Positions 17,821-60,640 of a stretch of 64,000 bases of DNA are shown here, one piece after another. The DNA lies in the NCBI GenBank assembly GCA_964016885.1, contig OZ024742.1, positions 61,628,001-61,692,000 on the forward strand. Direction: 5' to 3'. The notes below the pieces were generated by a model, which worked only from the letters and a program-made list of their open reading frames with translations, was not told the DNA's origin and ran no database searches. A program made the position numbers and the translations under genes. Position 1 is the first letter of the stretch; each line of letters starts with the position of its first letter. The DNA comes from Eledone cirrhosa (Eukaryota).

Positions 17821-19295
17821 TATAAATATATATTTGATGCGTATACATACACACATGTATATACACGTGCGTGTGTATCCGTATCAAATATGTATATGTA
17901 TGTGTGTGTATATATATATATATATATATATATATATATATATATATACGATATTAAACAAATGGAAACTATATTTATAAAACCATATTTATTTCGTTAT
18001 ATATATTTCTGGGATATCATATTAAAAATATCATATTAAAAATATGTTATGCCTTCCTCAGACAAAATACAATACATAAGCTGTTTTATAAATAATTAGT
18101 GACATACCTTGTAATAATGCAACTTCCTTTTAAAAAGTTGATTTGGTAGTGAAACTGTTATGATAGTTATATAGAAAGAAAACGAAGATGAGAAGAAGAA
18201 GATGAAGAGATGTGTGTAAAGAGAAAAGAGATGTATGTAAAGAAAAACAACGGAGCGAGATAGAGAGACAAGGATAGAGAGAAATACATTGATGGTGAAA
18301 AAAACATAGTAGGCTGCCTTTTGACAGATGATCATCGTATATGTGAGAGGTTAAGGGAAGGGATACAGTTAGATTAGTGTATAGGAGAAAAAGAAAGAAA
18401 GATGATATATTTAAAATATATTAAAAATATATTATGTCTCATCCATTTGAATTATCAATTTTTATGAATTAGGCATTATAATGTAAATATCAGTATTCAT
18501 GAATGAGACACATATCTATAATGTGTAAAAAAATGACCACATGCTCAGTTTAAAAATTCTTAGGTCTATAAGCAAAATCTGAGACAAAACTTCAAACATA
18601 AGTATATATGCATTCTCGTGAAAAATGAGAAAAGAGAAGGTTATCTCAAATTCAAGTTGATAAATATAGACGCACATGTGAACCTAGGTGATACGCTGCA
18701 CTGATTCTTATATTTCATGAAAAACTTCAATGTGTCAGAAAAGAAAAACTTCAATGCGTTAGAAAAGATTCCACCCTACATACATTTACATACATATATA
18801 CATATATATAGACACAAAACATATAAGATATACATTAACATCTAAAATAATCATCGATCAAGCATAGAGTAGACAACAGATATCAATATTAAAATTAAAA
18901 ACGCCAAGAATATCTTCGTCACTCCACAGAGTATCTAGGGACGCAAGAGAACATAGTATGCCACGCATATCGGTCATAGAATCAGAGTCAAAAGCAAACA
19001 AGACCAAAATTGCTCACCAAGCCTTATTTATCAGAAATCATTCAAAACTTATTCTACAAATGCTCTTATATTTATTATAGATGTTTATCCAGCTTAAAAA
19101 TTTATTCAAAAGATTGGGAACAACGCCAATTTTAGGGTAGTTTATTTAATCTCATTAATTATATATTCATGCGGAAAGGTTTTTTAAGAAAAAAAATAAA
19201 TAAAAAAAAATAAAAAAAAATTGAAGGAATCGAAAGATTTATCGCCAAGTATCACAAATAGTCAAATACCTTAAGTAAATATACTACATTTTATA

Positions 19296-20621
19296 CTACA
19301 TTTTAAATTTATATTTATATTTAAATGTTGAGTTCAATCTATGTCTGCAACAGCTGAATAAATTGGTTCGTAAATTAAGGGAATTTTTAGATTTTAATAT
19401 AAAGAATATCTCCTCCGCGCAGAGGTCACAAGTCTCAGAAGAGGAATTAAAAGGAATCCCTTTTGAGACTATATTCCAAACCATCGAATATCCAACTTTA
19501 TCATGCTTAAGTTGCCAGAGTAACCCTGACAGCGATGTTGATGATTTTTTATTTGGATCCGTGAAAGAATTTTTGTGATTATTATAGCGAAGTTTAAATT
19601 CTGTCGAGGTGGAACCAACATAATTAAAAGAATTTAAATCAGTTCTAACATTACAGTTGTATATTATATTTTTAACTAAGCAATTGTTATTTAGCGGACA
19701 TTTAGATCTATCTCTACAGTTACAGTTTTTTAGTTGAATATTGTTTAGGCTATTTTCGGTATTTTGGCTAGGTTTTAGATTCCTATTATTTATTCTATTA
19801 ATATTTTGTGCTAAATTTTTGGTGGACGAGTACGTTAATTTTATAGTATGTCTATTAAAAATTGAGTGATACTTATGTGTTCTAGGGAAGCGTTTGTCAA
19901 GAGCATTAAAAAATAGTTTAGCGATGTGGGTTTTAATGTTTAGTGAGAAAGGGGGGACAAACCATATTATATTTCTAGTTCTATTTCTTTTCTGGTTTTT
20001 GAAATTATTGTAGTGCTTTCTATTATAGTTGTTAAAGTTGTTACTATAATTAAAATTGTTGTTATTTTGGTTAGTTTGTCTATTATCGATGTACATAATT
20101 TTATCACTATATCCTGCTCTAGCTAAAGCATCATTATAATATTGGGCTTTTTCGTCAAAAATATTTTTATTGGAAGAGATTCTAGAGATACGTTTTTGAA
20201 CAGAGTTTACTATAGTATTTTTGACAGATCTGGGGTGATTGGAGCTAAAATTGACATAATTCAAGTTTTCATTTAACTTGTGAAATGGATAGTGAAGACA
20301 TGTGTTGAGATTAAATGTTACGTCTAGGAAATTGACTATTCTATGGTTATTCTCAATTTCTATTTTTAGATTAAGGTAATTAAAAAATTGTATAATTTGT
20401 TTTCTTTTCTTATTTAGTTCAGAGTTATTATTTTCAATAAGTAAAAGCATGTCATCTCTATATAAACCTCCGGTAACACCGGGTATTTTCCTATGCAGCG
20501 AATTAATTATAAATAGGCCCACAAGGTCCGTTACCTGAGCTGAGTCTGATGATCCCATAGTAATGTCAAAATTATTATCTCTATCTGCCCTAGTCCATAG
20601 TTGGTTATTAAATTCTATCAA
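19296..20621 (-). CDS. PLE polyprotein C-terminal part: RT (GLYRDD), thumb, Cys motif, GIY-YIG endonuclease; 5'-truncated
   Basis: DITMGSSDSAQVTDLVG, GGLYRDD, NFLDVT, WFVPPF, CNCRDRSKCPL, NIIY…YVGST…FKLRYNNH, CDLCAEE, CCRH; 441 codons open. Confidence 0.88.
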   Translation of the reverse strand: MIEFNNQLWTRADRDNNFDITMGSSDSAQVTDLVGLFIINSLHRKIPGVTGGLYRDDMLLLIENNNSELNKKRKQIIQFFNYLNLKIEIENNHRIVNFLDVTFNLNTCLHYPFHKLNENLNYVNFSSNHPRSVKNTIVNSVQKRISRISSNKNIFDEKAQYYNDALARAGYSDKIMYIDNRQTNQNNNNFNYSNNFNNYNRKHYNNFKNQKRNRTRNIIWFVPPFSLNIKTHIAKLFFNALDKRFPRTHKYHSIFNRHTIKLTYSSTKNLAQNINRINNRNLKPSQNTENSLNNIQLKNCNCRDRSKCPLNNNCLVKNIIYNCNVRTDLNSFNYVGSTSTEFKLRYNNHKNSFTDPNKKSSTSLSGLLWQLKHDKVGYSMVWNIVSKGIPFNSSSETCDLCAEEIFFILKSKNSLNLRTNLFSCCRHRLNSTFKYKYKFKM

Positions 20622-22391
20622 AGTTTTCCTGAATAAATAATAGGAATCTAAAACCTAGCCAAAATACCGAAAATAGCCTAAACAATATTCAACTAAAAAA
20701 CTGTAACTGTAGAGATAGATCTAAATGTCCGCTAAATAACAATTGCTTAGTTAAAAATATAATATACAACTGTAATGTTAGAACTGATTTAAATTCTTTT
20801 AATTATGTTGGTTCCACCTCGACAGAATTTAAACTTCGCTATAATAATCACAAAAATTCTTTCACGGATCCAAATAAAAAATCCTCAACATCGCTGTCAG
20901 GGTTACTCTGGCAACTTAAGCATGATAAAGTTGGATATTCGATGGTTTGGAATATAGTCTCAAAAGGGATTCCTTTTAATTCCTCTTCTGAGACTTGTGA
21001 CCTCTGCGCGGAGGAGATATTCTTTATATTAAAATCTAAAAATTCCCTTAATTTACGAACCAATTTATTCAGCTGTTGCAGACATAGATTGAACTCAACA
21101 TTTAAATATAAATATAAATTTAAAATGTAGTATAAAATGTAGTATATTTACTTAAGGTATTTGACTATTTGTGATACTTGGCGATAAATCTTTCGATTCC
21201 TTCAATTTTTTTTTATTTTTTTTTATTTATTTTTTTTTTTAAAAAAACCTTTCCGCATGAATATATAATTAATGAGATTAAATAAACTACCCTAAAATTG
21301 GCGTTGTTCCCAATCTTTTGAATAAATTTTTAAGCTGGATAAACTTCTATAATAAATATAAGAGCATTTGTAGAATAAGTTTTGAATGATTTCTGATAAA
21401 TAAGGCTTGGTGAGCAATTTTGGTCTTGTTTGCTTTTGACTCTGATTCTATGACCGATATGCGTGGCATACTATGTTCTCTTGCGTCCCTAGATACTCTG
21501 TGGAGTGACGAAGATATTCTTGGCGTTTTTAATTTTAATATTGATATCTGTTGTCTACTCTATGCTTGATCGATGATTATTTTAGATGTTAATGTATATC
21601 TTATATGTTTTGTGTCTATATATATGTATATATGTATGTAAATTTATGTAGGGTGGAATCTTTTCTAACGCATTGAAGTTTTTCTTTTCTGACACATTGA
21701 AGTTTTTCATGAAATATAAGAATCAGTGCAGCGTATCACCTAGGTTCACATGTGCGTCTATATTTATCAACTTGAATTTGAGATAACCTTCTCTTTTCTC
21801 ATTTTTCACGAGAATGCATATATACTTATGTTTGAAGTTTTGTCTCAGATTTTGCTTATAGACCTAAGAATTTTTAAACTGAGCATGTGGTCATTTTTTT
21901 ACACATTATAGATATGTGTCTCATTCATGAATACTGATATTTACATTATAATGCCTAATTCATAAAAATTGATAATTCAAATGGATGAGACATAATATAT
22001 TTTTAATATATTTTAAATATATCATCTTTCTTTCTTTTTCTCCTATACACTAATCTAACTGTATCCCTTCCCTTAAGCTCTCACATATACGATGATCATC
22101 TGTCAAAAAGCAGCCTACTATGTTTTTTTTCACCATCAATGTATTTCTCTCTATCCTTGTCTCTCTATCTCGCTCCGTTGTTTTTCTTTACATACATCTC
22201 TTTTCTCTTTACATACATCTCTTCATCTTCTTCTTTTTTATTTACATACATCTCTTCATCTTCTTCTTCTCATCTTCGTTTTCTTTCTATATAACTATCA
22301 TAACAGTTTCACTACCAAATCAACTTTTTAAAAGGAAGTTGCATTATTACAAGGTATGTCACTAATTATTTATAAAACAGCTTATGTATTG

Positions 22392-59270: not shown

Positions 59271-59965
59271 ATATATATATATATATATATATATATATAT
59301 ATATATATATATATATATATATATACTGTATATATATAAATTGATAGTCTGCGGCAGAGGAGACCAAGAATCAAAGAAGTACTCGATACATATTTAAATT
59401 TAAATAAATGATGCTCTGAACCAAGGTCCATTGAGCTGCTGTATTGGGAAATATGATCATCATACATTTAATATGTATCGATACTGTAATGTAGTATATA
59501 ACTACTCCAAATTTATTAATATGTTGAGTAGCATTAACTGGGACTGATTTTGGAGCTCTTTCTTGTCCCTATATCTTCTAGCGCTATTTATATCTGCGTT
59601 GGCGGCTGTAAAACGTTTGTTCTGAAACCATTAAGAGTAGTGAGTTAAAGTAAACTCTCTGCCCTTGACAGATATAAAGGTATTTTGTACAGTGTGAGAC
59701 ATATTAAGACAATTCCACTGACGATTAGATCTGTCTTTCGTTGCTTTACCAAATTCGATGGTTGGTAATCGATAATTGATTGCTTAGATCGGTGGTTTTT
59801 CTTCGTTCTTTGGTATATAAAACAGCTGCATGGAAAGAAAGACTTTTTACCATATTAAAGTATGTATATTTTCCTGTATATTATTTGCTCTATACAAAAT
59901 ACGATGTTACTCAAACAATATATGCTTCTTTCTCTCTCCATATATCTTTCAAATTTATATATATA

Positions 59966-60640
59966 TAACATTAAATTAAAAGTCGAATGACATATATATA
60001 TAAAATAAACACATCAAACTATTACTGGGGATAATTTGTAAAGAGTGTAAACACACATAGTTACGGAGGTAACATATTAAAAATTAACAAGACCCTGCAA
60101 TTATGATTAATCTCCTTTGTATATATTCCATTGAAGAAATATATTTCACCATTAATCGGTGAATCATATATGTCAAACCTTGGATCATTAAGCCACTGGC
60201 TTCACGGCGGGGCGATTTGTTTTCTTTAAACCACATGTGCTTTTTCGCCGTTATTCCCTGATTTGTTTTTAGTGTGTAATCATAGATAGTTAAATCTTCT
60301 CCTTTGACGATGATCCAAGATTTGACATCTATGATTTACCGATTAATGGTGAAATATATTTCTTCAATGGAATATATAGAAAGGAGATTAATCATTATTT
60401 CAAGGTTCTTGTTAATTTTTAATATGTTACCTCAGTAACTATGTGTGTTTTCACTCTTTACAAATTATCCTTTGTAATTGTTTGATGTGTTTATTTTATA
60501 TATATATGTCATTCGACTTTTAATTTAATGTTAATAAATGCTCGGATTTACTACTTCGAATCTTCGAACTTATTCCACAGGTTGTATGGCACATGCTTCT
60601 GATATTCTCAGATATGGCATCTTTAATCTAATTTTGGTAG
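59966..60640. mobile_element. Fold-back PLE-type end (arms 59966-60189 / 60310-60533), diverged arms
   Basis: About 225-bp inverted arms with several mismatches; degenerate hammerhead-like (C)GATGA…GAAATATATTTC; (TA)n flanks. Confidence 0.65.

Follow-up and report, generated by a model that had tools for sequence, protein, structure and literature searches.

The closest described relatives of the structures discussed here are the insertions of endonuclease-positive Penelope-like elements (EN+ PLEs), for which a layout with head-to-head pseudo-long terminal repeats (pLTRs), a tail at one end only and a (TA)n target has already been published (PMC3846280, PMC8557442). Adineta Pen2a (PMC3846280), the units in Fig. 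2 of PMC8557442 and Penelope of D. virilis (PMC2377424) carry an inverted 5'-truncated copy head to head with the element, a one-end tail, junction palindromes, AT-rich or (TA)n targets and an initiator-like pLTR motif. All of these recur in a 64,000-nucleotide stretch (the window) of the 3.0-Gb genome of Eledone cirrhosa (GenBank assembly GCA_964016885.1, contig OZ024742.1, positions 61,628,001 to 61,692,000, forward strand), in which an earlier note, made from the sequence alone, had picked out seven inverted repeats. How the inverted ends of PLEs form is named as an open question in PMC3846280, PMC8557442 and PMC11167929; the first two propose antisense self-priming and endonuclease trimming.

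The inverted repeats of the window appear to be ordinary insertion products of EN+ PLEs. These mirror-image repeats are real and very common, and their halves end at two fixed points of the element, a short family end (S) and a long family end carrying the tail (L). The tail is 80-110 nt long in seven of eight families or subfamilies, as against 30-40 nt in the published EN+ PLE units, and the pairing of one L with one S arm, which is counted here, holds for 99/101 classifiable pairs. The arms probably arise by twin priming, in which each target strand primes a cDNA on a single capped sense RNA and the two cDNAs are joined head to head. The observed basis of this reading is the fixed internal ends, the L+S pairing, the shared haplotype of the arms, the existence of non-nested arms and a 5' hot spot with an extra G; the data favour a capped sense template over the published antisense self-priming or trimming. 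Our literature search, with subscription journals and supplements (which may bear on the point) outside its scope, found no paper with L+S pairing or a cap-derived G in PLEs.

A biochemical counterpart is provided by Poseidon of Anolis, a PLE protein that in vitro cleaves the two strands and extends each of them, with two internal starts of reverse transcription that bound the tail; it is predicted to be a dimer and does not need hammerhead cleavage (PMC11167929). The paired internal starts, the use of both strands and the dispensability of the ribozyme are likenesses to the present case, although the main text of PMC11167929 draws no connection between this pair of starts and inverted insertions. 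The Poseidon starts lie inside the open reading frame (ORF) and lack target homology, whereas those of the subfamily examined in depth here lie upstream of the first ATG and carry TA.

The second primer of LINE-1 (L1) twin priming uses variable sites, in a minority of insertions, and yields two pieces that barely overlap; in the present elements that site is constant, most insertions are pairs and the two arms overlap. The likenesses are the inverted junction and, probably, internal priming of the second strand on the same RNA by microhomology and an extra G that comes from the cap (PMC11702581).

The inverted pairs of the window

Alignment of arms within the window finds all seven of the inverted repeats listed in the earlier note, from 17947 to 59966. 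In each of them the short arm reaches TA and then (TA)n, as had been said, and the opposite arm carries a further 80-150 nt. The almost loopless apices are likewise there, at 1 nt by computation (29328) and ~7 nt by eye (near 54430). The seven sites had been ascribed to several unrelated families; several there are, but the pairs at 17947 and 29046 are subfamilies of one family (A1 and A2 of family A, with 81-83% identity of DNA and 87% of protein), so that the sites represent six. Each window family was sampled in the host genome, A2 (the 29046 hairpin) in depth; positions in A2 are numbered so that the C at window 29329 is 1 and the A at 29328 is 0. The features are as follows.

17909..17948, no strand: (TA)n adjoining the short end of the first pair
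17947..20630, minus: A1 arm ending at the family S site and extending 835 nt beyond its partner in the 5' direction
19296-20654: reverse transcriptase (RT)-endonuclease ORF remnant in the A1 S arm
20631..22602, plus: A1 L arm with an 88-nt tail (22515-22602); arms 17947-19795 and 20631-22514 are 97.8% identical
29046..29327, minus: A2 solo-pLTR L arm, 5' end at the hot spot
29328..29328, plus: A2 1-nt apex between arms 29130-29327 and 29329-29526; its A is the family 5' hot spot, the putative transcription start
29329..29490, plus: A2 short arm, ending ~30 nt before family S; hammerhead-like core at ~29419-29460
31151..31309, minus: F3 arm ending at the family S site and extending ~90 nt beyond its partner in the 5' direction (inverted arms at 31151 and 31385)
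31310..31484, plus: F3 L arm, tail ~100 nt
51757..52037, minus: F4 L arm, ending ~10 nt before the usual L site
52038..52086, plus: F4 short arm, ending ~30 nt before the family S site; the arms align over 51874-51916 and 52038-52080
54366..54427, minus: F5 S arm at the family site, in a palindrome (54366-54496, 7-nt loop, by eye)
54428..54576, plus: F5 7-nt apex, a variant of the common 1-nt apex, and L arm with an 80-nt tail
57171..59081, minus: F6 S arm with an ORF remnant (58151-58924) and a nested dispersed repeat (~57737-57938)
59082..59268, plus: F6 L arm, tail ~88 nt; arms 57171-57280 and 59082-59181 are 83.6% identical
59966..60188, minus: aligned part of the F7 arm that ends at the family S site
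60310..60642, plus: F7 L arm, aligned part and 109-nt tail; arms 59966-60188 and 60310-60533 are 93.8% identical
48844..49216, no strand: F8, an eighth pair absent from the earlier note, inverted arms within 48844-49093

The F8 copy has its short arm cut at a non-TA point, and the tail of its family is ~30 nt. In 264 kb of contiguous DNA, counted by eye, 26/55 inverted pairs have the one-sided layout, or about one per 10 kb, and 3/55 are symmetric. A solo copy of F4 lies at 26896-27099; it is 97% identical to 51833-52036 and ends near the F4 short site.

Two fixed ends in each family

Two fixed ends, 80-110 nt apart (~30 nt in F8), are found in each of the eight families or subfamilies. Single 5-nt bins hold 13 S and 21 L arms in A1, 20 and 23 in F3, 30 and 30 in F5, and 19 and 19 in F8; the counts are 22 and 7 in F4 and 8 and 13 in F7, with few strays. 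Ends that fall off the two sites number 0-7 per family, and A2 and (by eye) F6 behave in the same way. In A2, S is at 191 and L at ~281, both upstream of the first ATG at 328. The ends are set by the element; the self-complementarity of (TA)n, which the earlier note invoked, does not select them. Its view of the long arm as reaching the true 3' end also fails, since internal pLTR copies continue beyond L into the ORF and L is therefore not the end of the element; nor is the short arm free to choose among internal TA dinucleotides, S being fixed in each family.

The S and L sites usually carry TA or AT. Enrichment of TA at the short ends does exceed background modestly (product over seven families 0.007, with the sites read by eye), but the effect is weak: 38-68% of positions are equally suited when microhomology with (TA)n of at least 2 nt is scored at all positions of these regions. 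Two of the seven window copies (29490 and 52086) end ~30 nt short of the family S; a later deletion into the array is the likely cause, and rare off-site priming is a possible one. Target-site duplications are unreadable inside (TA)n.

Pairing of L with S

Two sets of A2 loci were classified. Set 1 comes from the first 100 of 663 genome-order matches to a 25-nt pLTR pattern, which form 65 clusters, 60 of them fetched; L120, where an internal pLTR had been taken for an end, and ten loci lacking an inverted partner were excluded. Head-to-head arrangement occurs in 32/65 clusters and tail-to-tail in 0/65, and the 49 pairs comprise 47 L+S, one L+L, no S+S and one unclassified. Set 2, the non-overlapping 80 of 100 listed A2 places (two couples of which are tandem duplicates), gives 58 pairs: 52 L+S, one S+S, no L+L and five unclassified. 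The pooled excess of L+S has p 4e-27. Of 22 solo copies, 11 end at S and 11 at L. An inverted 5'-truncated copy at the 5' end with a tail at one end only, a feature of EN+ PLEs, is present.

Relations between the arms

Within A2 pairs the arms are discordant at 2/222 subfamily diagnostic sites, compared with 4559/20650 (22%) between loci, and at L114 both arms share an internal deletion seen in no other fetched place. The S arm reaches >10 nt further 5' in 18/47 L+S pairs, the L arm does so in 17 and the two are level in 12; neither arm is nested in the other in 18/47, and in 17/47 the long arm contains the whole of the short one. The window pairs at 17947, 31153 and 57172 are of the non-nested kind. 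An arm with unique sequence at both ends of the comparison is not a copy of its partner, so that snap-back of a cDNA, one of two routes offered in the earlier note, fails for those 18.

Body truncation points of paired arms are uncorrelated (rho 0.05, n 27). Overlap or filler at the A2 junctions is 0-8 nt in most cases, with a 6-nt palindrome overlap at the apices of L111 and L164, and at L113, L124, L139 and L145 a tail-only L arm is joined to a long S arm.

The 5' hot spot and its extra G

Genome-wide, 117 A2 matches break exactly before the hot-spot A (both strands counted, first base not C), where C is the native preceding base. Among tail-seeded L arms, 8/29 end at +1 to +7 and 13/29 pass beyond -5 (by eye). 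The context of the A is, we take it, initiator-like; an initiator-like motif in pLTRs is noted in PMC3846280 and PMC2377424. A G precedes the hot-spot A in 10/18 AT-flanked A2 solo copies (9/17 if L392, a tail-only pair, is left out), against a flank background of 2 G in 270 bases, and none of nine body-truncated A2 solos carries it (by eye). The extra G is on the sense strand; at full-length L1 insertions such a G reflects the cap (PMC11702581). The partners of hot-spot arms never pass +1 (0/59), compared with the same 13/29 for unselected L arms (p 6e-8).

Hammerhead cleavage was considered as the 5' stop and rejected: 0/54 partner ends fall at the predicted ribozyme cut (~139-140), the nearest being at 121 and 146.

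F5 has 12,958 exact genome matches to a 20-nt pattern. By eye, about three-quarters of the first 100 are tiny stubs, ~22 keep native upstream sequence and most of the remainder have their breakpoint no more than a few bases from a similar A.

Two side observations belong here. At L144:6480-6500 the short arm starts with G and three hot-spot bases and then jumps to ~position 44, as if the cDNA had skipped to the RNA 5' end. F4 5' ends cluster too, at reference 3-5 (L240, L248, L249, L251, L253, L254, L258); this may be a third hot spot of start sites, but the local sequence is TA-like.

The elements

L163 has the whole pLTR-ORF-pLTR unit, 3926 nt long and with an ORF of 738 aa, and this arrangement, a partial tandem of the unit, is also present at L132; the L163 ORF is 87% identical to that at window 19296-20654. 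By eye the 738-aa family A product has YRDD and a C-terminal IVY...YVG motif, together with RWR, DKT, CxCx5C, CxxC and CxH and no CCHH. Searches with the ORF matched 0 Pfam families and gave no real PDB match. Read by eye against the published account of the Hydra clade of EN+ PLEs with a C-terminal endonuclease (PMC8557442), these motifs make family A appear Hydra-like: an RWK-like motif, DKT, the CxCx5C linker, CxxC/CxH and (TA)n targets are common to both, and family A insertions sit in (TA)n. Hydra-clade units are, however, described there as 'generally under 3 kb', compared with 3.9 kb for family A. The full motif set is found in family A; F6 and the 53-kb element are linked to it by similarity only.

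The earlier note spoke of a hammerhead. The CUGANGA...GAAA core is there (in A2, CUGAUGA at 91 and GAAA at 129), but no Rfam hammerhead family matches at E up to 1 and the minimum free energy fold of A2 contains no hammerhead.

Other elements lie in or near these pairs. An ORF at window 23249-24643, with RVT_1 and GIY-YIG matches below cut-off, belongs to a PLE unlike family A; it is flanked by an inverted pair (22725-22829 and 25036-25140), within which is also a 93-bp palindrome with a 1-nt loop (22869-22961). A 5'-truncated PLE on the minus strand at 52333-54333 has 41% protein identity to family A, and 50 nt of its end recur in inverted orientation at 25177-25226. At L321:1378-2898, inverted ends of F8 enclose head-to-tail arrays of a pLTR-only unit of 322 nt, resembling the arrays of non-autonomous retrozymes. 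A LINE with APE endonuclease and RT at window 3-10591 is tandemly duplicated (period ~6.0 kb, 97.8% identical).

Origin of the inverted ends

That both ends of a target break prime synthesis, as the earlier note proposed, is supported as an interpretation. In the scheme we favour, both strands of a cut in (TA)n would start a cDNA, one at S and one at L of the same pLTR. The endonuclease would cut both strands, a protein dimer would place the two 3' OH ends at S and L with the aid of 2-3 nt of TA pairing, one cDNA would displace the other where they overlap, and the two would then be joined head to head. If the downstream pLTR were primed, the arms would be kilobases long, with independent stops and 0-8 nt of overlap or filler at the join, while from the 5' pLTR both cDNAs would run off the capped 5' end and yield near-loopless hairpins of 200-480 bp. 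In A2, two cDNA ends reading GTC-3', the C copied from the cap, could anneal around a T-T mismatch and leave the 1-nt apex at 29328 as A or T. Success of only one strand would leave a solo S or L copy. Whether this is also the normal transposition route of EN+ PLEs, with a dimeric RT-endonuclease copying the same pLTR of one capped sense RNA twice by strand displacement, appears to us evenly balanced.

Several points weigh against twin priming on one RNA. The start site and the cap are read from DNA, and genomic data do not distinguish a single RNA from two that share a source. The collision expected of two cDNAs on one RNA is not significant: tail-only L arms number 4/32 and equally short S arms 2/23 (p 1.0), so that displacement must be assumed; a pooled count by eye had looked raised, the matched comparison does not and enrichment is not claimed. 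The counts of pairing, haplotype and cap all come from A2. In F5 the extra G is seemingly rarer (0/5 host-flanked rows, by eye) and the 1-nt apex requires no cap. The start sites in PMC11167929 are not homologous to the cut DNA and do not differ between strands. Gene conversion between arms could also equalise haplotypes; the arms share only 5/36 private variants, a figure that speaks against strong conversion and says nothing either way about the template.

Two RNAs of one active source, each primed by one target strand and brought together through a protein dimer or the pairing of hammerhead stem III, are possible but rather unlikely; some asymmetry would have to impose one S and one L start on them. 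They would explain shared haplotypes, non-nested arms and full overlap without displacement; in several families stem III is, by eye, palindromic, and minimal PLE hammerheads have been proposed to act as dimers (PMC4209133). A symmetric pair, however, gives no reason for near-universal L+S pairing, and each RNA could use either pLTR, so that the absence of partners past +1 makes this model need separate short and long RNA species. Two independent RNAs, the other route of the earlier note, are disfavoured because the arms have a common haplotype, are paired as L with S and do not end on opposite sides of the +1 hot spot. Fold-back of a cDNA or self-priming of antisense RNA (PMC3846280), followed by endonuclease trimming of one end to leave the tail (PMC8557442), is improbable. 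It fits the short palindromes at many apices, the shared haplotypes and the nested short arms, but not the tail-only L arms joined to long S arms, the sense-strand G or the equal division of solos between S and L; as a general route it is refuted by the non-nested pairs, which likewise rule out snap-back for many loci.

That ready-made hairpin masters are copied as a unit, the palindromes not being built anew, is very improbable, even though one F5 1-nt apex recurs in 28 matches among 30 loci (the query included that apex). The A2 junctions vary from locus to locus over 4 kb, 100 unbiased F5 rows have many different junctions, and among 21 classified L/S loci the F5 apex base, in the L direction, is A 13 times and T 8 times (a rough classifier, whose other 7 calls were dropped). 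Near-perfect young hairpins beside (TA)n are a classic risk for library or assembly fold-back artefacts, and the earlier note had argued from diverged arms at 57-60 kb for old real structures. We agree and find an artefact scarcely credible: the arms stop at family-fixed, unequal sites with different flanks, the old pairs have diverged to 84-94%, the 57-kb pair holds a nested repeat, and the F5 apex base is covered by 204 and 138 reads of two Illumina runs, with T in 82 and 60 (RAD libraries of another study, with few start points and not PCR-free, in which both A and T are seen). The reads on the 29046 hairpin include short-end junctions with TA, and none spans the apex.

Implications

Twin priming would explain how EN+ PLEs build their inverted ends, and thousands of young copies in this genome offer junctions that discriminate between the published proposals. 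At about one layout per 10 kb, the process would be a major source of DNA palindromes in the genome. Were it the normal route of transposition, the tail, the inverted pLTR and the loopless hairpins would be products of one reaction, needing neither antisense templates nor ribozyme cleavage.

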